A model generated the notes under the pieces. That model saw only the letters and a program-made list of their open reading frames with translations. It had not been told where the DNA came from and searched no databases. Both the position numbers and the translations under genes were made by a program. From Bacillota bacterium (GTDB lineage: Bacteria; Bacillota; Bacilli; Alicyclobacillales; SLC66), in the NCBI GenBank assembly GCA_021793015.1, contig JAJYTO010000001.1, positions 7,738 to 71,737 of the forward strand: a DNA stretch of 64,000 nt, in the 5' to 3' direction. Below are positions 3,778 to 63,787 of this stretch, piece after piece; the stretch's first letter is position 1; every line of letters starts with the position of its first letter.

Positions 3778-4527
3778 CTATGTATCGTCATCCTGTCGCA
3801 ATTTACGCAGAGTCGTCCGTACGGTCTCCCCTGCATACCCCTTGCGATACAGATAACCAGCCACAAGTTCCCATCGCTTTTGATTCCGTTCCCTGTCGCT
3901 CCATGTGACAGCATCACGAGCGAGTTTCCTGTCAATCTCTGCAAGCTTACGACGACCGTCCTGAAAAGCCCCCGACGATTCGTCGTATCGACTGGCGCGA
4001 AGGGCCTGGCGCACCTGATCCGCCGAGATTCCGCGAGACAGCATGCGTTGGGCCAGGTCCCGCTTACTCCGCAGCGTTCCGCTGGAAAGCGTCTGTTCGA
4101 CATAACGTTCACTGAGCTCCATATCGTTCAGGAGACTCTGCTCCTTAAGCCAACGCACCACTTCCTCTGCCACCGAAGAATGGTACGAGTGTCTGATCAG
4201 ATGCCGCTTCACCTCGGTCTCCGTACGGGAGCGTCTAGCCAGATAGCCGAGGCTCAGTTCGCGCGCCTCAGACACTGTGTCCGCCCGCAAGAGTTCCTGG
4301 CGCACCGTTTCAGTAAACACCGTCCCGGCATGAATGTTCCGTTGCGACAAACTCATCGCGAGAAAAGGCCCGACGATCGTTCCGTCCGACAGATGCAGCA
4401 ACCGCCGCTGGGGATTTTCTGGATCGAGGTCCTGGCGCACAACCGTCAACTCGCCATGATCAGCCATCTCGACGATCACTCCATCCGAACACTCTGCCAC
4501 ACCCGCGTGACATGGCCTTGGGGACAT
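3778..4527 (-). CDS. recX: Recombination regulator RecX
   Basis: Repeated three-helix RecX-type segments (YLARRSRTETEVKRHL, LSRGISADQVRQAL, GYLYRKGYAGETV). Lies immediately downstream of recA. Start is uncertain: the ATG at 4527 lies inside the repeat terminus, and the ATG at 4467 (MADHGEL) is the alternative. Confidence 0.72.
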   Translation of the reverse strand: MSPRPCHAGVAECSDGVIVEMADHGELTVVRQDLDPENPQRRLLHLSDGTIVGPFLAMSLSQRNIHAGTVFTETVRQELLRADTVSEARELSLGYLARRSRTETEVKRHLIRHSYHSSVAEEVVRWLKEQSLLNDMELSERYVEQTLSSGTLRSKRDLAQRMLSRGISADQVRQALRASRYDESSGAFQDGRRKLAEIDRKLARDAVTWSDRERNQKRWELVAGYLYRKGYAGETVRTTLRKLRQDDDT

Positions 4528-4578
4528 GTGATGAACCCAATTTCGGCAGGCGCAGTGCGGACTTTATCACATGTCCCC
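4520..4578. mobile_element. MITE-like palindromic element, short (59-bp) copy 1
   Basis: GGGGACATGTGAT...ATCACATGTCCCC inverted termini. Aligns with both ends of the longer copies at 12793 and 40611, but the interior is deleted. Lies between the recA stop and recX. Confidence 0.6.
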
Positions 4579-5681: not shown

Positions 5682-5942
5682 CTATCCCGAAAATACGGTG
5701 GTCCCTGCCTGTCAGGACGGATCATGCATGCCGCTGCCGCTCAGACAGCCGCGGCCTAAAGGCCGCTAATACTCGCTGCAGCGGCATGCATGATCCGTCC
5801 TGGCGAGAGTCCCCCGCTGTCGCTAAACTCGCGACGGGCGCAATATATGTCTCCTCCCCGAGCGGGCCTTGCGCCTGTGAAAAAACTACTCGGCACCTTT
5901 TTCATTCCCTGATGGTGCTGCGAAGCAGCATGAATCTCTATC
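5682..5942. repeat. Modular intergenic repeat cluster R1 (hp2 hairpin, 3' half of hp1, T unit)
   Basis: Shares long near-identical stretches with the clusters at 20046, 30204, 53531 and 63369. Contains a 25-bp perfect inverted repeat (5713-5737 / 5778-5802). Confidence 0.9.
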
Positions 5943-5945
5943 ATC

Positions 5946-5985
5946 ATTGTACTAGGTCGCGCTCCAAAACACAAACATTTGTTCG
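5946..5985 (-). promoter_or_regulatory. Candidate SOS-regulated promoter: LexA (Cheo) box overlapping the -35
   Basis: Minus strand reads CGAACAAATGTTTG (5972-5985), matching 13 of 14 positions of the Gram-positive LexA consensus CGAACRNRYGTTYC. It is followed by -35 TTGTGT (5969-5974), a 17-nt spacer and -10 TACAAT (5946-5951). Confidence 0.5.
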
Positions 5986-6336: not shown

Positions 6337-7946
6337 TCTTGGCGTCCGCCGCCGTAGCGGCGCGAGGAACCTCCCATGCCACGCGGTTTCGCGGGTTCCA
6401 AATTGACCCGATAGCCGTTAACCCGCGCCTGGCGCAGCGCCTCAAACACGAACGGCGCGGACTCCTCCTCGACCTCGACGAACGTGAACTTCTCAAAAAT
6501 GTCGATCTTGCCGACTGCGGCGCTGGGGATTCCCGACTCTTCCGAAATCATCCGCACCATATCGCCAGGGCCCATCCGCGCGCTGCGGCCAATATTGACA
6601 AAGAAGCGAACCATACCCGGCGCTCCGCCGGTGTCTCCGAAATCGTACTGACCCGTTTCTTCCGATTCAAGCTCACCGGCGGAAGCGAGCTTCAACGCCG
6701 CAGCGGCGAGATCAATCGGATCAAGTTCATCCACCAATTTGCCAAGCAGCGCTCGATAGTGCCCCAGCCCGCCCTCCTGAACGGTGGACTGCAGACGATC
6801 GCGCCAAATCTCCGCCTGCCGCTCCGCAACATCCGCCAGCGACGGCACCTCACGCCCCTCAATGGACGCCTTTGTTTCACGCTGAATCGTCTTTAGCAGC
6901 TTGAATTCGCGAGGCGTGACGAGGGTGATCGCCAAACCGCGCTTGCCGGCCCGGCCCGTCCGTCCGACGCGATGGACATACGCTTCAGTGTCCTGTGGAA
7001 TGTCGTAGTTCACAACATGGGTCACGTTGCCGACATCAATGCCGCGAGCCGCCACGTCAGTCGCGACCAAAAGCTCGATCTCGCCGCCGCGGAATTTCTT
7101 CATCACACGATCACGCTGCGCCTGGCTCAGGTCTCCATGAAGGCCGTCCGCCAGATACCCCCGCGATATCAGCGCTTCCGCCAGCTCATCGACGCCCCGC
7201 TTGGTGCGGCAGAAGATGATGCCGAGCGTGACGTCCTCGCTGTCGATGACCCGACACATGCTGTCCAGTTTTGTGCGCTCAAGAACCTTGTAGAACACCT
7301 GGTCGATCTGAGGCACGGTCATCTCGCCATGCGTCATCTGAACGTGTTCCGGCGCCTTCATGTAGCGGTTTGCGAGGCGCCGCACTTCAGGAGGAATGGT
7401 GGCGGAGAACAGCAGTGTCTGCCGTTCTGCGGGAATCGTTTGCAGAATCGATTCGATGTCCTCAATAAAGCCCATGTCCAGCATCTCGTCTGCTTCGTCC
7501 AGCACGACCGTCTGCACTTTGTCAAGCTTGAGTGTTCCGCGGCGCAGGTGGTCGAGAACCCGTCCTGGGGTCCCGATGACGATGTTGACCCCCTGTTCCA
7601 GCGCGCGAATCTGATGACCAATGGACTGTCCGCCATAAATGGGCAGCGTCCGCACACGCTTAAATTTTGCGATCTTGCGCATTTCACCGGCAACCTGAAT
7701 AGCCAGTTCGCGCGTGGGCAACAGTACGATCGACTGGACGTGGCGACCGGTTCCCGCAATCTCCACAAGCGGAATGCCAAACGCGGCCGTCTTTCCGGTT
7801 CCTGTCTGGGCCTGTCCGATGACATCCTTACCGTCAAGAATCAGCGGAATACACGTACTCTGAATCGGAGACGGCTCCTCATAGCCCATCTCATTGATCG
7901 CTTCCTGCAGTTTCTTACTCAAAGCAAATTCTAAAAAAGTCGTCAT
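6333..7946 (-). CDS. DEAD-box ATP-dependent RNA helicase (CshA/DeaD-like) with C-terminal RNA-binding domain and RGG-like tail
   Basis: Q motif GYEEPSPIQ, AQTGTGKTAAF, VLDEADEMLD, SAT and HRVGRTGRAG. C-terminal DbpA-like segment, ending in GMGGSSRRYGGGRQD. Confidence 0.9.
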   Translation of the reverse strand: MTTFLEFALSKKLQEAINEMGYEEPSPIQSTCIPLILDGKDVIGQAQTGTGKTAAFGIPLVEIAGTGRHVQSIVLLPTRELAIQVAGEMRKIAKFKRVRTLPIYGGQSIGHQIRALEQGVNIVIGTPGRVLDHLRRGTLKLDKVQTVVLDEADEMLDMGFIEDIESILQTIPAERQTLLFSATIPPEVRRLANRYMKAPEHVQMTHGEMTVPQIDQVFYKVLERTKLDSMCRVIDSEDVTLGIIFCRTKRGVDELAEALISRGYLADGLHGDLSQAQRDRVMKKFRGGEIELLVATDVAARGIDVGNVTHVVNYDIPQDTEAYVHRVGRTGRAGKRGLAITLVTPREFKLLKTIQRETKASIEGREVPSLADVAERQAEIWRDRLQSTVQEGGLGHYRALLGKLVDELDPIDLAAAALKLASAGELESEETGQYDFGDTGGAPGMVRFFVNIGRSARMGPGDMVRMISEESGIPSAAVGKIDIFEKFTFVEVEEESAPFVFEALRQARVNGYRVNLEPAKPRGMGGSSRRYGGGRQD

Positions 7947-11807: not shown

Positions 11808-12800
11808 TTATTTGCGCGCAAACGAGTACGTGTATCCACCCGGCGCGCTCGCAACAATCGGCACCGGCAGCCCATCGATCGTCATGGAGATGTAGCGGCT
11901 GGCGCCGGCGTCTATGGACAGAGAATTGACCGCCCGGAACGTTTGCACCTGCCCCTGCGTCACAAACGCGCTCGGAACGATTTCCCGACCATCCGCATAG
12001 ACCTGTATCCAACACCTTCCAGATGTTCCCGTCACTTTTAAAACCAGGGGCGCGTTGGCTGTAACCCGAAAATTGGATGTGTTTCCCGATGAACCCAGGC
12101 TGGTTAACGACGCCGTCGTTGCCTGCTTGGCGCGCGATGCATTCGTGTGCGGCTTTGCCTTTCCCGTCGTCTTCGCTGATCCTGGAGACGACCCGGACGA
12201 TTGGGGCGTCGTCACGGATCCCGCTCCCGGAGGGCTGCCAGGATGTTGCGCCAGATTCGAATAAACCACCACGGCAATCGTAAATACCACCAAAACGAGC
12301 GCCGTTGCGCCAATGGCGTTGTTAAAGACGGATCCACTCCCGCGCGCGCGCCGTTTGGCGGAGCGACGCGCTGTCTGCGAAGCTGTGCGCTGCTCGCCGT
12401 TCGCCGCCGGCTTGCGCTCCCGGCCCTGCCCCGCAACGTGTGACGCCCCCGACGGGACACCGTCCTCTGCGGATGCGGGCCCGAGGTATTGGGCAGCTAA
12501 CTTGCGGCCGTCCAGACCCAGGAAATCCGCATAACTGCGTACGAACCCGCGAGCGTACACGACCCCCGGCAACACTCGCATGTCCCCCTGCTCGATGGCC
12601 TGCAAATAATGACCTCTCACTTTGGTGGCCTCCACAGCCTGTTCCAGAGTAATGCCCCGAAACTCTCGCGTGCGGCGGAGATACTCTCCCAATTCACGCA
12701 GACGCGCCGCTTCTTGGCCGGCTCCCGATGATGAACCAGATCCATTCGCTTGCAATGCGATACCCCCCTGAAACTGCTGAACGCTGCGGCTGGGGGACAT
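11808..12800 (-). CDS. rodZ: Cytoskeleton protein RodZ (HTH-XRE, TM, DUF4115)
   Basis: HTH segment LGEYLRRTREFRGITLEQAVEATKVRGHYLQAIEQGD, a central TM helix and a C-terminal DUF4115-like beta domain. Residues upstream of 12800 are encoded by the MITE-like element, so the start was set at ATG 12800, which is itself in the element terminus. Start is uncertain. Confidence 0.75.
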   Translation of the reverse strand: MSPSRSVQQFQGGIALQANGSGSSSGAGQEAARLRELGEYLRRTREFRGITLEQAVEATKVRGHYLQAIEQGDMRVLPGVVYARGFVRSYADFLGLDGRKLAAQYLGPASAEDGVPSGASHVAGQGRERKPAANGEQRTASQTARRSAKRRARGSGSVFNNAIGATALVLVVFTIAVVVYSNLAQHPGSPPGAGSVTTPQSSGSSPGSAKTTGKAKPHTNASRAKQATTASLTSLGSSGNTSNFRVTANAPLVLKVTGTSGRCWIQVYADGREIVPSAFVTQGQVQTFRAVNSLSIDAGASRYISMTIDGLPVPIVASAPGGYTYSFARK

Positions 12801-12988
12801 GTGATAAACCAGAGTTTCGGCAGGCGCACTGCGGTCCATGTAGTGTTTGACTAAAGCCTCAAACACTAGGTTTGACTAAAGCCTCAAACACTAGGTTTGA
12901 CTAAAGCCTCAAACACTAGGTTTGACTAAAGCCTCAAACACTATGTTGGATCATAGCGCCTGCTGTGCGGACTTTATCACATGTCCTC
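12793..12988. mobile_element. MITE-like palindromic element, copy 2 (196 bp, with internal tandem expansion)
   Basis: Termini are GGGGACATGTGATAAA and TTTATCACATGTCCTC, with subterminal GCAGGCGC / GCGCCTGC. The central hairpin is TAGTGTTTGA-ctaaagcc-TCAAACACTA. Collinear with the copy at 40611. Confidence 0.65.
12851..12950. repeat. 4 x 25-bp perfect or near-perfect tandem repeat inside MITE-like copy 2
   Basis: The unit ctaaagcctcaaacactaggtttga repeats at 12851, 12876, 12901 and 12926. The copy at 40611 carries a single unit. Confidence 0.9.
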
Positions 12989-13767
12989 TAGCGTTCCATG
13001 ATGTCATGTTCCAGCCCTTCATAAGTGATTTCCTCATCCGGGGTGTTGCGAAGTTCAATGACGCGATCAAACAGTTCCCAGGAAAATTCCGACCGTCGCA
13101 CAAAGATGTCAGGATGCTCGATGATCTTGGGAGCGTTCAGCCGGAGGATGCGGCGGACAAGACGCAGATGCTCCTCGCTGCCCCTCATTGTCGACACGAT
13201 GCCGTCAATGATATACACATGATCGCCCAGATCAAATTCATCATCGTCCAGGTCCGTGCGAAGCGTTTGTTTTAACAGCGTGGAGGAAATGAAGGTCCAG
13301 CGTTTTCCTGCATACACACTGGCTGCGACAAGGGACTCTGTCTTGCCGACTCGCGGCATGCCGCGAATGCCCATGATCTGATTGCCGGGTCGCTTCAGAT
13401 GTTCGCCGATGAAGTCGACAAGAAGACCCAAATCGTCGCGAGTGAATTTATATGTTTTGCAATGCCCAATCTCCGTCTCCCGTTCAATGAGGCGCCCGTG
13501 ACGGAGCGCCAGACGATCCAACAGCGTCGGCGGCCGCAACGCGGTCACCGTGATATTGTCCACCTGACGCAACATATCCTGCAGAGTGTCAATCCGCGCG
13601 GTGTCTTCCACTTGCAGCAAGAAGCCGCGCCTGCGATCTTCGACGCCGCTCAGCTTGACGATGTTGATCGACAGCATTCCCAGCACTGAAGCGATATCAC
13701 CCAATAGCCCAAACCGATCCTTATAGATATAATACTCGAAATACCACTCACCCATGTGATCAGCCAT
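12988..13767 (-). CDS. Conserved uncharacterised protein, YmfK-like (ACT-like N-terminus plus P-loop GMPRVGKT)
   Basis: N-terminal ACT-like segment (KDRFGLLGDIASVLGMLSINIVKLSG) and a Walker-A-like IRGMPRVGKTES. Sits directly upstream of rodZ, as ymfK does in B. subtilis. Start set at ATG 13767. Confidence 0.6.
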   Translation of the reverse strand: MADHMGEWYFEYYIYKDRFGLLGDIASVLGMLSINIVKLSGVEDRRRGFLLQVEDTARIDTLQDMLRQVDNITVTALRPPTLLDRLALRHGRLIERETEIGHCKTYKFTRDDLGLLVDFIGEHLKRPGNQIMGIRGMPRVGKTESLVAASVYAGKRWTFISSTLLKQTLRTDLDDDEFDLGDHVYIIDGIVSTMRGSEEHLRLVRRILRLNAPKIIEHPDIFVRRSEFSWELFDRVIELRNTPDEEITYEGLEHDIMER

Positions 13768-13798: not shown

Positions 13799-13880
13799 TC
13801 TAACACCCCTATCCCAGAAAATCGCCGCAGGCGCATTTTCTTCCCGATTTTTGGTGGCGCGTCAGCGCCATGAAAGTCTA
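13799..13880. repeat. Modular intergenic repeat cluster R2 (single A unit)
   Basis: ctatcccagaaaatcgccgcaggcgcattttcttcccgatttttggtggcgcgtcagcgccatgaaagtctatcc is near-identical to the A units at 20046 and 63369. Confidence 0.9.
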
Positions 13881-13899
13881 TCCTGTGAAATCGAGTTGG

Positions 13900-19206: not shown

Positions 19207-19991
19207 TGGATCACCCCTGGCGGGCGCTGCGCCCGATAGCCGTCGATCATCTGGCGCAGTTGCCGCATCGCAGCTCCGAGTCCGCCGATGTCATCGATCA
19301 AGCCGTGCAAAACGGCGTCCCGACCGACGACGGTGCTGCCTATGTCCCGCGCCAGTTCCCCCGTGGTCAGCATCAGATCCCGCAGAGCCTGTTCTGAGAT
19401 ACGCGAATGGGCAGTGATAAACTTGGTCACCCGCTCCTGCATCTTTTCCAGATACTCAAAACTCTGCGGCACCCCGATGACCAGGCCATTCAGCCGGATC
19501 GGATGAATGGTCATCGTTGCACTCTCCGCGATCAGCGAGTAGTTGCTCGCGACTGCGATCGGCACCCCGATCGAATGCCCGCCGCCAAGCACCAGCGTCA
19601 CCGTCGGTTTTGACATGGAGGCGATCATCTCCGCGATCGCCAGACCAGCTTCGACATCGCCGCCCACGGTGTTGAGAATGATCAGCACGCCCTCAATCTT
19701 GTCGCTCTGTTCTGCCGCCACCAATTGCGGAATGATGTGCTCGTATTTGGTTGTCTTGTTTTGCGGCGGCAACACGATATGCCCTTCAACCTGACCAACG
19801 ATGGTCAAACAGTAGATGTTCGACTCATCCACTACCGGATTCGTCTGGCCGAGCCGTTCGATATTGTCGGCAATGACGTTCTGTGTCTGCGGAGGCCCGC
19901 CGGGTGCGGCGGGCAGCTCGTGGTTCGGCGGTTGCTGGTTCAGGAACCCCCCGGCCTGTCCATTGCCAGAAGGCAGGATGGTACGGCTCAT
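19203..19991 (-). CDS. tepA: ClpP-family translocation-enhancing protein TepA
   Basis: ClpP-like core ([35 protein letters not shown]). The rnj-tepA-ylzJ synteny is preserved. Start set at ATG 19991 behind GGGAGTGA. Confidence 0.82.
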
Positions 19992-20045
19992 GGTTGCGTC
20001 ACTCCCACATATGTCTCGCTGGTAGTATGTCGCAACCATGGGGGG

Positions 20046-20445
20046 CTATCCCGGAAAATCGCCGCAGGCGCATTTTCGACCCGGTTGTTGGTGGCGCGCA
20101 AGCGCCATGAATGTCTATCCCGGAAAATTGATGGTCCCTGCCGGTCGGAGTCGTATATTGCGCCCCTGCTCAGACACCGCTGTCGCTAAACTCGCGACGG
20201 GCGCAATATACGACTCCTCCCTGAGCAGGCCTTGCATTCGTGAAGAACACTGCCGACGCCTTTTTCATTCACTGATGGCGGCGCGCAACGGCATGCATGA
20301 TCCGTCCTGGCGGAAGCCCAGCGCTGTCGCTAAACTCGCGACGGGTGCAATACAGGACCCGTCCCCGAGCAGGCCTTGCATTCGCGAAAAAACTTTGCGG
20401 CGCCTTTTTCATCATGATGTTTGTGGCGGGCCTTGCATGGGTCTA
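20046..20445. repeat. Modular intergenic repeat cluster R3 (A unit, full hp1, T unit, 3' half of hp2, hp1 fragment, T unit)
   Basis: A unit at 20046-20120. The hp1 stem is GGAGTCGTATATTGCGCCC (20147-20165) paired with GGGCGCAATATACGACTCC (20199-20217). Other parts are collinear with R1, R4 and R6. Confidence 0.9.
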
Positions 20446-22113
20446 CACTTCCATGATGATGGGGAGAACCATGGGGCGTCTGCGCGTCTGTTCATACAGA
20501 TACCGGCTCAGCGAGTCCCTGACGCCGGTCTTTAATCCCGACCAATCGCTGACGTTGTCTGTCATCAGCCGCTGCAAAGTGGCGGAAACAATCCGGCTCG
20601 CTTCATCCAGCAACTCCTCTGACTCGCGAACGTACACGAATCCCCTGGAGATGATGTCGGGACCCGAGAGAACACTGCGTGTCTGTTTGGACAGCGTGAC
20701 TACGACAACGAGTATCCCATCCTGCGACAGCAGCTTGCGGTCGCGCAGCACGATATTGCCGACGTCGCCCACGCCAAGACCGTCAATCATGACGGCGCCC
20801 GCCTGAACTTTTCCGCCGAGACGCGCAGCTCCCCCCTGCAACTCAAGCACATCGCCAATATCCATGATAAAGATGTTGTCAGGGTTTATACCGGTCGCCT
20901 CCGCCAGTTGCGCATGCCGATTCTGCATCCGAAACTCTCCATGGACAGGCACAAAATATTTGGGGCGGATAAAATTCAACATCAGTTTCAATTCTTCCTG
21001 GCTGCCATGCCCTGACACGTGAACGCCCGACACAGACTGATAGATCACATGAGCCCCGATCCGGAACAAGAGGTCGATTGTCCGGGAAATTGATTTTTCG
21101 TTGCCGGGAATGGGCGATGAAGCGATGATCACGGTGTCGCCAGGGTAGATTTCCACCTTCCGGTGCGTCGCGCGGGCCATTCGCGTGAGCGCCGACATCG
21201 GTTCACCTTGCGAGCCCGTCGTCAGCAACGCCACTTCTTTGGCATCGTACCGCGACAGGTCGTCCGGATCGATGAGCGTGGACGGCGCCACCTGCAAGTA
21301 CCCCAAGTCTTTGGCCACAGTGATGTTATTGACCATGCTGCGCCCCACCACCGCCACCTTACGGCCTGTCCGTTCCGCGGCGTTGATCACCTGCTGCAGG
21401 CGATGGATATTGGATGCGAAGGTGGCCAGAATGACGCGGCCAGAGGCGGCACGAAACACATCGTCAATCGTCGCGCCCACCGTGCGCTCGGACATCGTGA
21501 ACCCGGCGCGTTCCGCGTTCGTGCTGTCCGAGAGAAGCGCCAGCACGCCGCGCTCCCCGAGCGCCGTCATCTTCGCATAGTCGGCATGGCGTCCATCGAC
21601 CGGCGTCTGATCGAACTTGAAGTCGCCTGTCTGTACGACGAGACCCTCCGGGGTGTCGATGGCGAATCCCACCGCGTCCGGAATGCTGTGGTTCACGTAA
21701 AAACAGGTCACCGTAAAGTTGCCCAGCGTGATCTCGCTTTCGTTGGTGATCGCAATCAGCTTCGCCTGGTCCAGAATCCCGTGTTCGCGCAGCTTGCCTT
21801 CGACCAGGCCCAGAGTGAGTCTGGTCGCATACACCGGCACCTGCAGAGTCTTTAACACATACGCCAATCCGCCAATGTGATCCTCGTGTCCATGGGTCAA
21901 AAACAGGCCGCGAAATTTCTGTTTGTTCTCCACCAGGAACGTAATATCGGGGATGACAATATCAACGCCAAGCATTTCTTCTTCCGGAAATTTCAGACCC
22001 GCATCCACGACAATCATGTCGTTGCCGTACACGTATGCGGTCATGTTTTTACCGATCTCCCCCAATCCCCCGAGAGGAACGATCGACAACTTATTTGTGT
22101 AATTCCTGTTCAA
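20443..22113 (-). CDS. rnj: Ribonuclease J
   Basis: Metallo-beta-lactamase motif HGHEDHIGG, with beta-CASP and C-terminal domains. TTG start behind GGAGGTG. Confidence 0.92.
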   Translation of the reverse strand: MNRNYTNKLSIVPLGGLGEIGKNMTAYVYGNDMIVVDAGLKFPEEEMLGVDIVIPDITFLVENKQKFRGLFLTHGHEDHIGGLAYVLKTLQVPVYATRLTLGLVEGKLREHGILDQAKLIAITNESEITLGNFTVTCFYVNHSIPDAVGFAIDTPEGLVVQTGDFKFDQTPVDGRHADYAKMTALGERGVLALLSDSTNAERAGFTMSERTVGATIDDVFRAASGRVILATFASNIHRLQQVINAAERTGRKVAVVGRSMVNNITVAKDLGYLQVAPSTLIDPDDLSRYDAKEVALLTTGSQGEPMSALTRMARATHRKVEIYPGDTVIIASSPIPGNEKSISRTIDLLFRIGAHVIYQSVSGVHVSGHGSQEELKLMLNFIRPKYFVPVHGEFRMQNRHAQLAEATGINPDNIFIMDIGDVLELQGGAARLGGKVQAGAVMIDGLGVGDVGNIVLRDRKLLSQDGILVVVVTLSKQTRSVLSGPDIISRGFVYVRESEELLDEASRIVSATLQRLMTDNVSDWSGLKTGVRDSLSRYLYEQTRRRPMVLPIIMEV

Positions 22114-30203: not shown

Positions 30204-30482
30204 GTGAAAATACGGTGGCCCGTGCCGGTCGGAGTCATATATTGCGCCCCTGCTCAGACAGCGCTTCGCACAACTCGCGACGGTCGCAATATATGACTCC
30301 TCCCTGAGCGGGCTTTACGTCCGTGAAGAACGCTGTCGACGCCATTTTCATCCTGCTGATGGTGGCGCGTCAGCGCCATGACGGGCTGTCCCGGAAAATC
30401 GCCGCAGGCGCATTTTCGACTCGGTTGTTGGTGCTGCGCAAGTGAGATTTTGCTTCACAAAACTCAGGCATGACAGTCTATC
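30204..30482. repeat. Modular intergenic repeat cluster R4 (hp1, T unit, A unit with H insert)
   Basis: The hp1 stem is GGAGTCATATATTGCG (30231-30246) paired with CGCAATATATGACTCC (30285-30300). The A unit carries the insert gtgagattttgcttcacaaaactcag. Confidence 0.9.
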
Positions 30483-36792: not shown

Positions 36793-39700
36793 CTACTCGG
36801 CTTTAATGGCCTCCATCTTAAACGCTTCAACGATGTCGCCTTCCTTGATGTCATTGAACCGTTCAAGCGTAAACCCACATTCATACCCGAAGGACACTTC
36901 ACGCGCGTCATCCTTGAAACGCTTCAGAGAATCCAGCTTCCCTTCATACACGACCACCCCGCCGCGGATGACCCGAACATCGGCGTCACGGACCAATTTG
37001 CCGTCCTGCACCATGCCGCCGGCAATCGTTCCGACTTTCGACACCTTGAACAACTGCCGAACTTCCGCGCGGCCCAGCACAACTTCCTTGTAGACGGGAT
37101 CGAGCATGCCTCGCAGCGCAGCCTCAATCTCTTCGATCAGGTTGTAGATCACGCGATAGAGGCGGATGTCCACCTTCTCAGACTCTCCCATTTTGACCGC
37201 GTTTACTTCCGGGCGCACGTTGAATCCGATCACGATGGCGTTCGACGCAGAGGCGAGCAAAATGTCGGACTCCGTAATGGCCCCCACGCCATTGTGGATG
37301 ACGCGGATGCGCACACCGCTCACTTCGATTTTCTGCAGGGCTCCGAGCACCGCTTCCGCGGAGCCGTGAACATCCGCCTTCAGGATGAGATTGAGGTCCT
37401 TGACCTCACCCTCCTGAATCTGCTTATACAGATCATCGAGCGTGACGCGGGAGGTCACCCCGAGTTCTTCCGCGCGCTGGCGCATCGAACGGCGTTCCGC
37501 CACGAGGCGCCCCTGGCGTTCGTCGTCATACACCACAAACAGATCGCCGGCGCTTGGCACATCGGACAGACCCACGATCTCGACCGGCATGGACGGCTGC
37601 GCCTCCTTCACCCGCCGCCCACGGTCATTCACCATGGCCCGCACCTTGCCAAACGTGTGGCCCGCAACCACCACATCGCCGATGCGCAGGGTGCCGTTTT
37701 GAACGAGGATGGTCGCAACCGGGCCCCGCCCCTTATCCAACTGGGCCTCGACAACCGTTCCCCGCGCACGCATCGACAGACTGGCTTTCAGATCCGCCAC
37801 CTCCGCCACAAGCAGGATCATCTCCAACAATTCTTCGATCCCCTGCTTCTGCAGTGCAGACAGCGGCACGAAGATCGTATCGCCGCCCCACTCCTCCGCA
37901 ACGAGGCCGTGTTCGGTCAGCGCCTGCTTGATGCGATCCGGATCCGCTCCCGGTTTGTCCATCTTGTTGATGGCCACGATAATCGGCACGTTTGCCGCTT
38001 TGGCGTGGTTGATCGCCTCCACGGTTTGCGGCATCACTCCATCATCCGCGGCAACCACGAGAACTGTGATATCAGTGACCTGTGCGCCGCGCGCACGCAT
38101 CGTGGTGAATGCGGCGTGACCGGGAGTATCGAGAAACGTGATTCTCTTCTGGTTGATCTCGACCTGATAGGCGCCGATGTGCTGCGTGATGCCGCCCGCT
38201 TCGGAGGCCGTCACATTGGTCTGACGAATGGCGTCAAGCAGCGTGGTCTTGCCGTGATCGACGTGCCCCATGATCGTTACCACGGGCGGTCTGTGTTCAA
38301 GAGTCGCCTCGTCGATGTCTTCCGGAAGCATCTCCTCCGCTTCGAGATCGCGCGGCGCGTCCACGATAACCTCGGTGCCAAACTCCGCCCCCACCAACGC
38401 CATCGCGTCGGTGTCGAGCTCCTGGTTGATCGTCACCGGCATGCCGAGAAACAACAGTTTTTTAATAACCTCTGACGCCTCGCGACGAATATAATGGGCA
38501 AACTCGCTGACCGTCATAGGAGCGTCGACATGAACCTGTTTCGGGCCTTCAGGCGCCCTGACCACCATGGTCCGCCCCTGCGAGCGCGAGCGTGGAGGTT
38601 GCAGCTTGCGGTTATTCTCACGCCTGTCAGACAGATTCGAACGGTTGTTGCCTCCTCGGTCTCCGCCGCGTCTGCGCTGCTGGCCCTGGCCTCCCGTTTG
38701 CCCGCTGCGCGCCGCGTCGGACGAAGTCTCAAAACGCGGCGGCGCACTGGAAAATCCACCTCCTGATTCTCCAGAATAACGCGCAGGCCGCGATCCTCCT
38801 TGCGGTCCACGTCTGTTATCCCCGGAACGCGCCGGTGCAGCGCCGCCATACGAACCCGTCTGGGCAGATCGAGCCCCGCCGCCCTGATAGCCGCCCCGCG
38901 GTCCGCCCGCACCGCCTGCCGATTGCGGACGGCCACCTGCCGACGGCGGACGGCCACCTGCCGACGGCGGACGGCCTCCCGTCGATTGCGGACGGCCACC
39001 TGCCGATTGCGGACGGCCACCTGCCGATTGCGGACGGCCACCTGCCGATTGCGGACGATTTCCGTCGCCCGCTCCCTGTCCCGGACGGCGATCGTACCCG
39101 GCGGACGCAGGCCGCTGATTGTATCCACCACCCTGACTCGTCCGATTTGGCGCTCCCTGGCGCGGCGGATACTGTCCGGGGCGGCGATCCGCTCCGCCCG
39201 CGGCGCCTTCATACGGCCGCGGCGAGCGCTCTGCGCCGTCTCCGGTTGACCGTTCAGAATATCCGCCGCGAGCGTGGGCGCCCTGCGCCGTTCTGTCCCC
39301 CTCCGGCGAACCAGGCGCGCGTTCCCGAAATGGACGATCGTTGCGCCCGCCCTGATTGGTCGCGCCCTCCGACCGATAGCCGCCTCCATATGACCGCCGC
39401 TGATGCGTGGAGCCTGTGCGCGCCGAGTACGGTTGCGATGGTCGCGCACCCGTGATCTGCGCGGCGGCGTCATCGGCGTTTGCGGCGCCGCGCGCGCCCG
39501 GAACCGCCGCGGGCGGCGCCCATTCTGCGTCCTGGGCCGGCGGCGTTCTCCGCTCCGGCGCTTGTTCCGACGGTCCGCGCGTTTCCGTCTGCGTTGCATT
39601 GCCCTCTGTCGTATGCCCCGTAATAGTTCCCTCTCCCTCGCTTACACTCGCTGTCCGCGCGACTGTCCGGCGGTCCGGGTCGCGCTCCTGCTTGCGCTCC

Positions 39701-40479: not shown

Positions 40480-40610
40480 GGCCCATCCCCCCACGTGGAA
40501 ATCCAAACCAGTCTGTAATCTCCCGTATCCGCGTCTCCATGAACCCGGGTGTTCAGGAAACGCCGACGGTTCGCAGACGCCGGCCATGCTGGCCCAGTCA
40601 TGTTGGCCTA

Positions 40611-40732
40611 GGGGACATGTGATAAACTGAAATTTGGCAGGCGTGGCGCGGTACATATAGTGTTTGATTAAAGCCTCAAACACTATATGTGGGATCATAA
40701 CGCCTGCTGCGCGGACTTTATCACATGTCCTC
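40611..40732. mobile_element. MITE-like palindromic element, copy 3 (122 bp)
   Basis: GGGGACATGTGATAAA...TTTATCACATGTCCTC termini. The inner hairpin is ATATAGTGTTTGA-ttaaagcc-TCAAACACTATAT. Flanked by TA on both sides. Its last base is the first base of the nusA stop codon. Confidence 0.65.
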
Positions 40733-41817
40733 TAGTCATCCAGAAACGCGGCGCGGTCAAGATCCGCGAACACGGAGGATGTCCGTCCCATCTGGCTCTC
40801 GCTCTTGATGTCGATCTTCCAGCCTGTCAATTTGGCGGCCAGACGGGCATTTTGCCCCTCTTTGCCGATGGCGAGCGACAATTGGTAGTCAGGCACCACC
40901 ACCCGCGCCATTTTCTCGCCCTCAAACACCTCCACATCGACTACCTTCGCAGGCGATAGAGCGCTCGCCACGTAAATGGCGGGATCGTTGCTCCACTCGA
41001 TGACATCGATTTTTTCGCCCTGCAACTCGGCCACGATCGACTGAATTCGCATGCCCCTCGGCCCCACGCAGGCGCCGATCGGATCCACATCGTGGTTTCG
41101 TGAAAATACGGCAACCTTGGACCTTGCTCCGGCCTCGCGCGCCACCGCCTTGACCTCGACGATCCCGTCATAAATCTCCGGCACCTCAAGTTCCAGCAGG
41201 CGGCGCAACAGTCCCGGGTGAATGCGCGACAGGAGGATCTGCGGTCCCTTTGTCGTCTTTTCCACGCGCAAAATGAAGGCGCGGATGCGATCACCCAACT
41301 GCAGGCGTTCACCGGGGATCTGTTCGGACAGCGGCAGCAGACCCTCGGTCCGTTCCAGATCCACATATGAATAACGCCCGTCCTGTCGCGCGACCACACC
41401 CGACACGATGTCCTCTTCCAGATCCGCGTAGGCTGTGTAGATGATGCCGCGCTCCGCTTCCCTGATGCGCTGCGTCACAACCTGTTTGGCCGTCTGGGCC
41501 GCGATGCGGCCAAATTCTCGCGGCGTAACCTCAAGTTCCACGATGTCGCCCAGGCGATAGTTTGGATTCATTTCCATGGCGGCGTCCAGCGACAACTCCA
41601 GACGCGGATCGTGCGGACTCTCCACCACGGTCTTGCGGGCGTACACAAGAATGTTTCCCGACAGTCTGTCGACTTCGACGCGAACATTTTGCGCGGAACT
41701 GAAATTCCGCTTGTACGCCGAGATGAGCGCCGCCTCAATCGCCTCGATCAGCACACCGCTGCTGATGCCGCGCTCCCGTTCGAGTTGGTCCAGCGCTTCG
41801 ATAAAGTCCGCATTCAT
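40732..41817 (-). CDS. nusA: Transcription termination/antitermination factor NusA
   Basis: N-terminal domain [19 protein letters not shown], an S1 domain and two KH domains ([34 protein letters not shown]). Start set at ATG 41817. Confidence 0.93.
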
Positions 41818-53530: not shown

Positions 53531-53880
53531 CTGCCGCGAAATATCGCCGCAGGCGTATTTTTCTTCCCGGTTGTTGGTGGCGCGAAGCGCTGAGATTTTG
53601 CTTCGCAAAACTCAGGCATGAAAGTCTATCCCGAAACCAACATGGCCTGACGGCCACCGCCAACCATGGCAACATCCCAGACGCGCTTGGCAAGTTGCCG
53701 TATAAAAATAACGATGGTCCCTGCCGGTCGGGATCATATACTGTGCCGCCGCTTGAACATGTCTGCGCCAAACTCGCGACGGGCACAGTATACGACCCCG
53801 GGCGAGCGGGCTTTCATCCCCTGAAAAACGGCGCTGGCGCTTTTTCAGGGAATGGCGCCGCGCAGCGCCATGGGGGGTCT
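53531..53880. repeat. Modular intergenic repeat cluster R5 (A unit with H insert, unique spacer, divergent hp1, T-like unit)
   Basis: The A unit with the H hairpin CTGAGaTTTTGC-ttc-GCAAAACTCAG is at ~53531-53635. The hp1 variant is at 53731-53797. The T-like unit has CCCTGAAAAA...TTTTTCAGGG and ATGGCGC...GCGCCAT stems. Confidence 0.85.
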
Positions 53881-59848: not shown

Positions 59849-61316
59849 GCCGTTCACCTCCCGTGAAGCATGAGGAGAGAAAATCGGAATCAACGACCAT
59901 GATGTCGTCAGGCACGCGCTGACCTGTTGTCAGATACGACAATGGTTTTTGCAACGTGTGTGCGGCAGCCAGACAGAGGGTTGGCAGAACCGTCTCGTCG
60001 AGCTTTGTGAACAGCAGGGCGTCGTAGCCGACGGAGGCGAGCACTTCAGCGACCTCCTTTGCTTCCAGCCAACGTGACGACAGGCTGAGCACCAGGTATC
60101 TGAGATCGATGGATATACCCCCCAACAGCGTGTCGATCTCCTGCGCATGTGAGTGATCAAGAAATGCCCTGCCCGTTGTGTCCACAAATACGAGATCGAG
60201 CTTCGACATGCTGTGCAGGCGTTCCTCCACTTCCGCAGCCGACCGGGCCACAGCAAGCGGTATACTTAGAATGTCTGCGTACGTCTTGAGTTGCTGCACA
60301 GCCGCCATGCGAAATGTGTCCACGGTCAGCAATCCCACCGATCGCCCGTCGCGCAGCTTCGCCTGGGCGGCCAATTTGGCGATCGTCGTGGTCTTGCCCA
60401 CTCCGGTGGGACCAAAGAACGCCACAACTCGGTCACTGCCGCCAATCGTTCTGACAGGTCCCGTTTCTTGCAGCAGAGTCCGGGAAAACCGAGTCAGCGC
60501 GGCATCCACCGCCCTAGGGTCGCGAATATCCGAGTGCGCCGCCTCGGTCATGAGAAAACGCTCCAGAAGCGGAGCAGGCAACTGCGCGTGCATGAGTCGT
60601 TCGACTACGCGCCCCAACGCCGTGCGATCCAGACCAGGAAGGCCGCCCGGCCCAATCAGCGCAGTGAGCAGGCTGCGGAGATCGCGCAGTTCACGCTCCA
60701 CCGCGACGGCGCCAGCGCCCGTTGCACCCGCCGCCAGACCGTCGCCGCTGACCGCGTATCCCGCGCTGGACGCATGGCCGACGACGACCCGCTTCCCCTT
60801 GGCATCCGCTGGCGCGTGTCCGGCTGTGGGGGCGCGTTCCGGGTGAAGCGCCGCAGCTCGTCCGCCTGCCGGCGCGCTTTCCCGGTGAACCGCCGCAGCT
60901 CGTCCGCCTGCCGGCGCGCTTTCCCGGTGAACCGCCGCAGCTCGTCCGCCTGCTGGCGCGCTTTCCGGGTGAAGCGCCGCAGCTCGTCCGCCTGCCGGCG
61001 CGCTTTCCCGGTGAACCGCCGCAGCTCGTCCGCCTGCCGGCGCGCTTTCCCGGTGAAGCGCCGGAAATCGTGGATCCGGTCCGAGCGACGCCTGAAAACC
61101 CGGTGATGCGCCCAGGGCGTTCACGGGCGCTTCTCTGGCGTAATCGTCATACTCGCGCCCCGCCACGACTTCGTATACCTTCACTCCGAACAGTCCAGAC
61201 CAGCCAACGGCCCGAATTTTCCGCTTTGACAGAATAACCGCCTCAGATCCCAATTCCGCCTTGATGACAGTGAGCACCTGAGGCAAGGACTTGGCGACGT
61301 AACGCTTGATAAACAC
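59832..61316 (-). CDS. flhF: Flagellar biosynthesis SRP-type GTPase FlhF with a repeat-expanded B domain
   Basis: N-terminal MFIKRYVAKSLPQVLTVIK and an NG domain with FFGPTGVGKTTT and DTTGR. The internal 14-aa repeat HRESAPAGGRAAAV occurs ~5 times. Confidence 0.9.
   Translation of the reverse strand: MFIKRYVAKSLPQVLTVIKAELGSEAVILSKRKIRAVGWSGLFGVKVYEVVAGREYDDYAREAPVNALGASPGFQASLGPDPRFPALHRESAPAGGRAAAVHRESAPAGGRAAALHPESAPAGGRAAAVHRESAPAGGRAAAVHRESAPAGGRAAALHPERAPTAGHAPADAKGKRVVVGHASSAGYAVSGDGLAAGATGAGAVAVERELRDLRSLLTALIGPGGLPGLDRTALGRVVERLMHAQLPAPLLERFLMTEAAHSDIRDPRAVDAALTRFSRTLLQETGPVRTIGGSDRVVAFFGPTGVGKTTTIAKLAAQAKLRDGRSVGLLTVDTFRMAAVQQLKTYADILSIPLAVARSAAEVEERLHSMSKLDLVFVDTTGRAFLDHSHAQEIDTLLGGISIDLRYLVLSLSSRWLEAKEVAEVLASVGYDALLFTKLDETVLPTLCLAAAHTLQKPLSYLTTGQRVPDDIMVVDSDFLSSCFTGGERHARSG
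60842..61065. repeat. ~5.3 x 42-bp in-frame tandem repeat inside flhF
   Basis: ggtgaa(g/c)cgccgcagctcgtccgcctgccggcgcgctttccc units run head to tail with only a few substitutions. Confidence 0.9.
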
Positions 61317-63368: not shown

Positions 63369-63787
63369 CTATCCCGAAATATCGCCGCAGGCGTATATTT
63401 TTCCCAGTTGTTGGTGGCGCGTGAGCGCCATGAAGTCTATCCCCGAAAATCGCCGCAGGCGCATTTTCTTCCCGGTTGTTGGTGGCGCAAAGCGCCATGA
63501 AGTCTATCCCGAAAATACGGTGGTCCCTGCCTGCCAGGACGGATCATGCATGCCGCTGCCGCTCAGACAGCCGCGGCCCAAGGGCCGCTAATACTCGCTG
63601 CAGCGGCATGCATGATCCGTCCTGGCGGGAGTCCAGCGCTGTCGCTAAACTCGCGACGGGCGCAATATATGACTCCTCCCTGAGCGAGCTTTACGGCCGT
63701 GTAAAACTTCGCGACGTCTTTTCATCCTGCTGACGATGCCGCGCAGCGGTGAGATTTTGCTTCCCAAAACTCAGGCATGGCCGTCTA
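63369..63787. repeat. Modular intergenic repeat cluster R6 (two tandem A units, hp2, 3' half of hp1, T unit with H insert)
   Basis: A units at ~63369-63442 and ~63436-63509 are joined by gtctatcccc-gaaaat. The hp2 25-bp perfect stem is 63535-63559 / 63600-63624. Collinear with R1. Confidence 0.9.

Follow-up and report, generated by a model that had tools for sequence, protein, structure and literature searches.

The stretch of DNA analysed here (64,000 nucleotides (nt), positions 7,738 to 71,737 of contig JAJYTO010000001.1 in assembly GCA_021793015.1, from a Bacillota bacterium of the Alicyclobacillales; hereafter the window) contains a long hairpin, hp1. Rather than being a stand-alone RNA gene, hp1 is a module within a family of mosaic intergenic repeats. 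Its stem co-varies across copies, which points to a role in the single-stranded state, as RNA or as single-stranded DNA (ssDNA), possibly as a protein recognition fold. We lean towards regarding hp1 as the hairpin core of a non-autonomous repeat selected in its single-stranded form, similar to REPINs (hairpins formed by repetitive extragenic palindromic (REP) doublets), bacterial interspersed mosaic elements (BIMEs) and miniature inverted-repeat transposable elements (MITEs). A first-pass annotation of the window had given hp1 a second, interleaved helix formed by two segments, B and B'. This overlooked the mosaic, lineage-specific repeat around it, the orphan arms and the opposite sense strand; moreover, B is part of a conserved loop motif and B' lies in a poorly conserved trailer, and the two do not form a pseudoknot helix.

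Covariation of the hp1 stem within a mosaic repeat family

In the array designated R3, the hp1 stem consists of 19 exact base pairs (bp) on the + strand, with GGAGTCGTATATTGCGCCC (20147-20165) and its reverse complement (20199-20217) enclosing a 33-nt loop, as had been annotated. At up to three mismatches the arm occurs seven times in the window, compared with 0.02 occurrences expected. The arm substitutions that had been described for two other copies were recovered as well: R4 has A:T at pair 7 where R3 has G:C, together with one C.T mismatch at pair 17, and R5 has three compensated pairs (3, 12 and 15) and three mismatches, so that 16 of its 19 positions pair.

Compensatory change was scored in 34 copies and later in 49 distinct copies, taken from the window and related contigs and aligned to a covariance model with 18 scored pairs. 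Among the 34 copies, 7 of the 19 pairs were changed on both sides and none on one side only, with 98.1% of alignment cells paired. With 49 copies, 10 of the 18 pairs were changed on both sides, again none on one side only, and 97.8-98.6% of cells were paired. None of 500 shuffles of the 49-copy set reached the observed values, and controls in which the partner arm was slid gave 31-48% paired cells. The evidence for compensatory arm changes thus strengthens as copies are added, and the proposal that the hairpin is selected as a structure, whether a structured RNA or a protein recognition fold, is supported by a stem that stays paired through many double substitutions.

The stem co-varies because the family is split into subfamilies, each with a fully paired stem (for example GGAGTCATATATTGCGCCC, GGATTCATATGCTGTGCCC, GGAATCGTATGCTGCGCCG, GGGGTTGTATACTGCGCCC, GGAACCG... 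and AGAACCG...). About 50 full hp1 copies show 24 distinct arm combinations, and 33 of the 49 stems are perfect. The pair at the loop end of the stem is C-G in some copies and G-C in others, and covariation extends to as many as four flanking pairs (GGTC/GACC, CGCC/GGC, GGCT/GGCC). Arms that have lost their partner are more diverged: orphan 3' arms differ from the consensus at a mean of 2.4 positions (n=5) versus 0.53 for paired arms (n=30).

The loop is marked by sequence motifs, of which AACTCGC is invariant in 49 of 49 hp1 copies. A second hairpin, hp2, forms a 25-bp stem unrelated to that of hp1 (coordinates in Table 1; further copies in lineage sequences L006 and L035), and the loops of both hairpins have in common CTCAGACA towards the 5' side, ACTCGC towards the 3' side and a small hairpin inside. 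The inner mini-hairpin of hp2 is GCGGCC/GGCCGC with a variable tetraloop, and hp2 has compensated pairs of its own, two of them in the L006 copy. For hp1, the mini-hairpin GTCGC...GCGAC was found in R1, R3 and R6, in agreement with the first-pass annotation. A variable but paired stem combined with conserved loop motifs is what would be expected of a hairpin that is read by a protein.

The window holds seven arrays of the family, which together occupy 1.6 kb of the 64 kb (about 2.5%), and 67 arrays were mapped across 448 kb of lineage DNA. Units are arranged head-to-tail, joined at CTATCCC, and follow a common plan of A-tract, hairpin, T-tract and GC-rich terminal hairpin; in the annotated orientation they start with CTATCCCGGAAAAT and finish with the terminal hairpin and CATGAAAGT. 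Three unit types differ in the middle hairpin: the short unit (~69 nt) has a 4-bp hairpin, the hp1 unit (about 150-190 nt) a hairpin of 19-23 bp, and the composite unit of R1 and R6 has the 25-bp hp2, then a mini-hairpin, then an orphan hp1 3' arm. The second half of the R3 array has 3' arms only, and the orphan hp1 3' arm in its third unit, GGGTGCAATACAGGACCC (20343-20360), is decayed. The R4 array is located between the pnp stop codon and the conserved pnp terminator, and the tail of R6 carries a long terminal hairpin.

Table 1. Positions of the R3 array with its component parts and of the other arrays of the family in the window; the + strand is the orientation used in the first-pass annotation.
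Feature	Position	Strand	Content
R3 array	20046-20412	+	Three units, parts listed below
Short repeat unit, first in R3	20046-20114	+	CTATCCCGGAAAATCG, small hairpin CGCC-GCA-GGCG, ATTTTC, terminal hairpin TGGCGCG-CAA-GCGCCA
hp1 unit leader	20115-20146	+	CTATCCCGGAAAAT...GGTCCCTGCCGGTC; its CCCTGCC is an alternative nested partner of B'
hp1 5' arm	20147-20165	+	GGAGTCGTATATTGCGCCC
hp1 loop, 33 nt	20166-20198	+	Conserved box CTGCTCAGACA; B at 20166-20173; invariant AACTCGC
Loop mini-hairpin GTCGC/GCGAC	20182-20186/20194-20198	+	Inside the hp1 loop
hp1 3' arm	20199-20217	+	GGGCGCAATATACGACTCC
hp1 unit trailer	20218-20290	+	TCC, B' CTGAGCAG (20221-20228), GCCTTGCATTCGTGAAGAAC...CTTTTTCAT, terminal hairpin region
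Third R3 unit, degenerate	20289-20412	+	Only the hp2 3' arm (20289-20309), mini-hairpin, orphan hp1 3' arm, B'-like CCGAGCAGG, tail
R1 array	5682-5950	+	hp2 25-bp arms 5713-5737/5778-5802, mini-hairpin, orphan hp1 3' arm 5836-5854
R2	13809-13890	+	One short unit without hp1, between two same-strand genes
R4 array	30206-30482	+	hp1 arms 30231-30249/30282-30300 (18/19 paired), then short units
R5 arrays, rpsB-tsf spacer	53534-53820	+	Short unit with long terminal hairpin (53534-53632) and diverged hp1 (array 53705-53820)
R5 hp1	53730-53748/53781-53799	+	16/19 paired
R6 array, upstream of flhA	63369-63779	+	Two short units, hp2 63535-63559/63600-63624, orphan hp1 3' arm 63658-63676, tail

The terminal GC hairpin probably co-varies too. 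Orthologous units in L001 and L009 differ by a compensated pair (TGGCGCG..GCGCCA versus TGCCGCG..CGCGGCA), and across copies the terminal stems vary (TGGCGC, TGCCGC, TGCTGC, CATCG) yet stay paired.

Distribution, strand and spread of the repeats

The family was found only in the window's metagenome-assembled genome (MAG), in two sister MAGs and in two metagenome contigs, all of a Sulfoacidibacillus-related lineage. Three pattern scans covering one genome each for 185,579 species recovered it only in MAGs JA6.bin5 and JA1.bin52, the three other matches being chance, and a metagenome scan yielded two further genuine contigs (L039 and L040). The viral contigs, plasmids and phages that were searched gave no family match. 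About 240 kb of sequence belonging to 14 related genomes was searched with nhmmer and with a covariance model, and neither detected a copy; among these genomes was that of Sulfoacidibacillus thermotolerans, the nearest named relative by RNase J (89% amino-acid identity). In S. thermotolerans the rnj-clp spacer is ~70 nt and element-free versus ~450 nt filled with units in the window. This repeat-free spacer (L044:11660-11740, compared with window 19990-20045) contains ATAGATGCCATG, which resembles the array-end junction GATAGAC(N3-4)CATG; from this one case, such a motif could mark a favoured target or be ancestral.

Differences at orthologous loci were also seen between closer relatives. The pnp spacer that holds R4 in the window is repeat-free in the sister MAGs. 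Between the sister MAGs, orthologous arrays differ by one whole CTATCCC-bounded unit (L001/L009), a short unit stands in place of an hp1 unit (L042/L043), and a different hp1 subtype occurs between flanks that are otherwise 93-96% identical (L031/L027 and L032/L127). These differences show that turnover of the family proceeds in steps the size of a unit and that copies exchange sequence with one another. The FlhA protein of the window is identical to one in MAG GCA_027324545.1, and the sister contigs that carry the window's flhA (L024 and L025, independent assemblies) stop ~260 nt upstream of it, at R6.

All predicted genes in the window are on the minus strand, and those flanking the arrays are core Bacillota genes (recA, DEAD-box helicase, RNase J, Clp protease, polynucleotide phosphorylase, rpsB, tsf and flhA). 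Of 41 hp1-anchor copies, none falls within a predicted gene; among the 67 mapped arrays, a single one was flagged as doing so (L126:246-340, with the gene call taken as predicted). Between co-directional genes, 38 arrays are oriented opposite to both neighbours versus 5 in the same orientation, and arrays lie between convergent genes in 14 cases versus 3 between divergent genes, so that gene 3' ends are favoured. The same placement has been reported for REPs, which are extragenic and follow genes, between unidirectional or convergent open reading frames (ORFs) (PMC3733652). Because the arrays are oriented opposite to the genes, the strand transcribed in the gene sense is the reverse complement of the one on which hp1 had been annotated.

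The imperfections of the stem differ between the strands. Of the 18 broken stem cells, 13 are A.C or C.A on the annotated strand and none is G.U; on the gene-sense strand, those 13 become G.U (or G.T), and they stem from at least eight loci or events that are distinct from one another. Among them is a C-G / C.A / T-A series confined to one subfamily, which corresponds on the sense strand to the classic route through a wobble intermediate. This asymmetry is suggestive, but not decisive, in favouring the sense strand. Array orientation agrees with local GC skew to about the same degree as with gene direction, with discordant loci split both ways, and transcription and replication are therefore inseparable as its cause. 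An asymmetry in folding energy was rejected as a further sign: the advantage of the sense strand is 3.25 kcal/mol for the arrays but 5.4 kcal/mol for random coding segments, which identifies the effect as an artefact of composition.

The most economical explanation would be that only copies able to fold a single-stranded hairpin are copied or survive. The hairpin and its loop motifs (CTCAGACA...ACTCGC) would act in cis as the substrate of a putative copying or recombination enzyme, the loop would supply sequence-specific contacts, and orphan or mismatched copies would be decaying remnants; the repeat family, its distribution, orientation and covariation are observed, while the copying mechanism, the enzyme and any effect at the RNA level are our inference. 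As the elements lie in operon spacers and 3' untranslated regions (UTRs), the reverse complement of the annotated strand is transcribed into mRNA, where a perfect duplex of ~20 bp would be a likely landmark for RNase III or an exonuclease. As in REPINs, a long hairpin was found that arises from an inverted doublet with compensatory changes (19-23 bp stem), as was extragenic placement after genes; judged as a MITE, the unit has hp1 in its interior and no terminal inverted repeats, only a weak and imperfect complementarity of leader and trailer. A more specific version, which we put forward tentatively and think rather unlikely, is that hp1 and hp2 are interchangeable stems presenting one loop signature (CTCAGACA ... 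ACTCGC) to a dedicated single-strand-specific protein, in the manner of a partnership between REPINs and REP-associated tyrosine transposases (RAYTs) or of a sequence-specific RNA-binding or processing system, in this acidophilic Bacillota lineage. A survey of REPs lists no REPIN-RAYT-like partnership for Bacillota (PMC3733652).

Several points weigh against hp1 being the core of a copied repeat. A crude regular-expression search for HUH/Y1 enzymes over all ORFs in the 448 kb of lineage DNA, which represents a fraction of the fragmented MAGs, found no transposase signature. Empty or shorter orthologous spacers exist, but their junctions are too diverged or are bounded by CTATCCC, giving no clean target-site duplication or empty-site junction; the CTATCCC at both array ends may itself simply be part of the unit. 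Where orthologous loci differ in subtype, the cause could be gene conversion instead of transposition. The GTAG and CGTC tags of classical REPs are absent from hp1, and neither arm is a palindromic REP in itself. Selection on RNA would explain the orientation bias and the wobble asymmetry just as well, the directions of genes and of replication being confounded, and the sense strand, which is the lagging-strand template for co-oriented genes, is also G-rich, so that mutation bias pushes in the same direction. Finally, because the repeats fragment MAG assemblies, copy numbers taken from MAGs are underestimates and the census is incomplete.

With regard to the REP tags, neither hp1 arm has GTAG. 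A CGTC is present at the arm/loop junction on the sense strand, where the adjacent palindrome has a 5-bp stem and a 7-nt loop. REP families with CGTC have stems of 8-9 bp and loops of 4-5 nt (PMC3733652), which places hp1 outside them.

We also considered selection of each copy at the RNA level, in which the sense-strand duplex of 19-23 bp in mRNAs and 3' UTRs would be an RNase III site or an exonuclease barrier that sets how stable neighbouring cistrons are relative to one another, a role described for REP, Correia and ERIC elements. The sense strand is certainly transcribed, as operons contain arrays (in rpsB-tsf, in rnj-clp and upstream of flhA) and one array follows the pnp stop codon ahead of the terminator, and Correia elements are indeed bound and cut by RNase III (PMC2649163). 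This would also accommodate the predominance of arrays opposite to both neighbours and the reading of each of the 13 transition-type imperfections as G.U on the sense strand; the first of these, however, is matched by GC skew, and the folding energy of the sense strand is compositional. Moreover, several loci (including R1, R3b, R5 and R6) tolerate orphan arms or copies with mismatches. At orthologous positions a hairpin can be exchanged for a different subtype or give way to a short unit, which argues against a function for each locus; a purely structural role would have no need of the conserved loop motifs. We regard RNA-level selection of this kind as a real but less probable alternative.

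Less probable still is a plain DNA palindrome without selected function, whose arms would be kept alike by template switching, hairpin mismatch correction or gene conversion between copies. Correction of quasi-palindromes is an established mutational mechanism, and subtype replacement at orthologous loci shows that copies do exchange sequence. However, the imperfections are one-sided by strand (13 A.C versus 0 G.U), the loop is conserved across unrelated stems, and orientation and placement are strongly biased. Long perfect palindromes are, furthermore, normally unstable in bacteria, yet here they have been amplified.

A link to IS200/IS605 insertion sequences (ISs) was suggested by one locus and rejected. 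In MAG JA1.bin52, an array begins 24 nt beyond the end of an IscB pseudogene (L017:6400-7104), which retains the HNH and C-terminal portions and is interrupted by an in-frame stop; the best database relative of the pseudogene is 60% identical, and it is the only such instance in 2.4 Mb. The ends of this relic and those of intact relatives are unrelated to the repeats, and its position beside an array is probably a coincidence. A related autonomous IS with the same ends was not seen in the lineage DNA examined. In L140 (ERZ27233557, the sample of the window's lineage), an IscB gene is split by a DDE_Tnp_1 transposase gene, with its RRXRR and HNH parts on either side.

The B/B' complementarity and other candidate roles

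The first-pass annotation had placed B directly after the 5' arm and B' after the 3' arm, and had proposed from this order that hp1 and B/B' form an H-type pseudoknot whose second helix co-varies. In R3, B (CTGCTCAG, 20166-20173) and B' (CTGAGCAG, 20221-20228) are indeed exact 8-bp complements. Across copies, in contrast to the 98% of hp1, only 67% of B/B' cells are paired in a fixed register. The variation is mostly one-sided, and the few apparent double changes come down to single cells or to shifts of register. B hardly varies and sits in the best-conserved segment, the loop (pairwise identity 0.87), whereas B' sits in the least conserved, the trailer (0.51). In R6, the box that had been matched with B' comes after the 5' arm of hp2 rather than that of hp1; the B-like box of R1 is placed likewise, and in both arrays the hp1 3' arm is an orphan. 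In general, hp2 units carry the box CGCTCAGACA after their own 5' arm with no adjacent B', and B is therefore conserved for another reason.

Energies lead to the same view. The B/B' duplex has a mean of -10.7 kcal/mol within a copy versus -10.2 kcal/mol across copies; a permutation of matched against shuffled pairs on the annotated strand gave p=0.003, a value that overstates the support because subfamily members are not independent. Together with the mini-hairpin, hp1 reaches -42.4 kcal/mol versus -16.9 kcal/mol for B/B'. B' pairs about as well, and in a nested manner, with the CCCTGCC of the leader, which resembles B, and the minimum-energy fold of both strands picks this nested extension. 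The leader/B' helix was itself rejected as a selected pairing, since its covariation support is no better than that of B/B'.

The geometry is equally unfavourable. No nucleotide separates the first arm from B, and 3 nt separate the second arm from B', on either side of a 19-bp stem. By established pseudoknot stereochemistry, a 3-nt linker reaches about 20 Å at most, and a 19-bp A-form helix measures about 50 Å. The two helices thus cannot coexist, since the 3-nt linker would have to cross the 19-bp helix. A structured RNA or nucleoprotein fold with both helices is accordingly very improbable, despite the R3 complement, some B/B' complementarity in most copies and one change at the subfamily level that looks compensatory (GCTC/GAGC to GCTT/AAGC).

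Other identities for hp1 were examined. Rfam 15 gave no match at the gathering threshold over the whole window, and a permissive search of 20000-20460 returned chance-level matches only (E 0.88 and 7.3). A small protein was rejected because the reading frame is not conserved: the ORF initiated at ATGAAAAAGG is read in three frames (38, 31 and 26 amino acids) across 19 copies. Promoter scanning, applied to the R3 array alone, found no promoter-like site, so that this array is not an independent unit of transcription. An intrinsic terminator was likewise rejected, as no U-tract follows hp1 (TCCCTGAGC follows on the + strand and GACCGGCAGG on the - strand); a terminator scan of the R3 array returned a single weak site elsewhere in the array and no enrichment. 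UUCG or GNRA tetraloops, considered as a sign of RNA on the annotated strand, were dismissed too: what reads as 'TTCG' proved on parsing to be a TTC triloop within a stem that has a bulge, and the sequences of the loops are variable.

The window also contains repeats unrelated to hp1. A second family (12797-12990, 40610-40735 and a partial copy at 4513-4560) looks like a classic MITE: it has perfect 14-bp terminal inverted repeats (GGACATGTGATAAA ... TTTATCACATGTCC) around a palindromic 25-mer (GTGTTTGACTAAAGCCTCAAACACTAG) that is present once (near 40654) or in four tandem copies (12845-12944), and one copy of the family lies between nusA and ylxR. In-frame tandem repeats occur within two genes, with a 21-nt period (7 amino acids) in the N-terminal region of infB (IF-2; 38891-39078) and a 42-nt period (14 amino acids) in that of flhF (60764-61099).

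Significance and relation to known systems

The family opens no new category of biology, and the most eye-catching claim made for hp1, the pseudoknot, is unsupported. The repeats lie within core operons (rpsB-tsf, pnp, rnj and flagellar genes), and a 20-bp RNA duplex at such sites could affect how the mRNA is processed; they break metagenome assemblies; and the clean covariation of the stem, together with loops common to two unrelated stems, makes them a useful natural data set on how hairpin repeats spread.

In their architecture the arrays recall BIMEs of E. coli and Rhizobium-specific intergenic mosaic elements (RIMEs), which are modular intergenic mosaics of palindromic units and linker motifs, often arranged in arrays, after genes and inside operons. 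The hp1 family likewise forms modular intergenic mosaic arrays after genes and inside operons. It has no sequence relation to BIMEs or RIMEs, however, and its modules include hairpins of 19-25 bp with loops of 33-40 nt instead of REP pairs.

Integron attC sites provide a different parallel. The hp1 family lacks R'/R'' core sites and an integrase context, and its neighbours are core housekeeping genes, not cassettes. As in attC, structure takes precedence over sequence: an imperfect palindrome, lying downstream of genes in one orientation, would function as folded ssDNA. Similarly, palindrome-associated transposable elements (PATEs) of IS200/IS605 and the subterminal hairpins of IS608-type elements are ssDNA hairpins read by structure, with G.T tolerated and an orientation that follows the replication strand. 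hp1 resembles them in these respects, but it has no similarity to the ends of the IscB relic, the only IS200/IS605-type relic nearby, or of its intact relatives, and no TnpA was found.

Correia elements of Neisseria (CREE/NEMIS) and the MITEs ERIC, RUP and bcr1 (PMC2649163; PMC3184786) resemble the hp1 family in size (~100-200 nt), in being co-transcribed with their neighbours as long hairpins, which in those elements RNase III can cut, and in insertion polymorphism between close relatives. They differ in that their paired parts are terminal inverted repeats with a target-site duplication (TA in Correia), whereas hp1 is internal.

With respect to REPINs, no RAYT/Y1 gene was found for the hp1 family by the crude regular-expression search of 448 kb, and there is no GTAG or CGTC tag; its best-conserved motifs are in the loop and not in the arms, the arms are not small palindromic REPs, and its host belongs to the Bacillota, a phylum absent from the REP survey (PMC3733652). 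In the REPINs associated with RAYTs in Pseudomonas and Enterobacteria, inverted arms of ~20 nt flank a spacer and fold, as ssDNA or mRNA, into a long hairpin; compensatory changes are common there, and singlets are decayed (PMC3116915). The hp1 family shares the long hairpin with ~20-nt arms and is equally extragenic, multi-copy, clustered in tandem and lineage-specific, with single arms more decayed. Taken together, the family is a previously undescribed structured repeat in an uncultured acid-loving lineage, and an element of a kind known from other bacteria.

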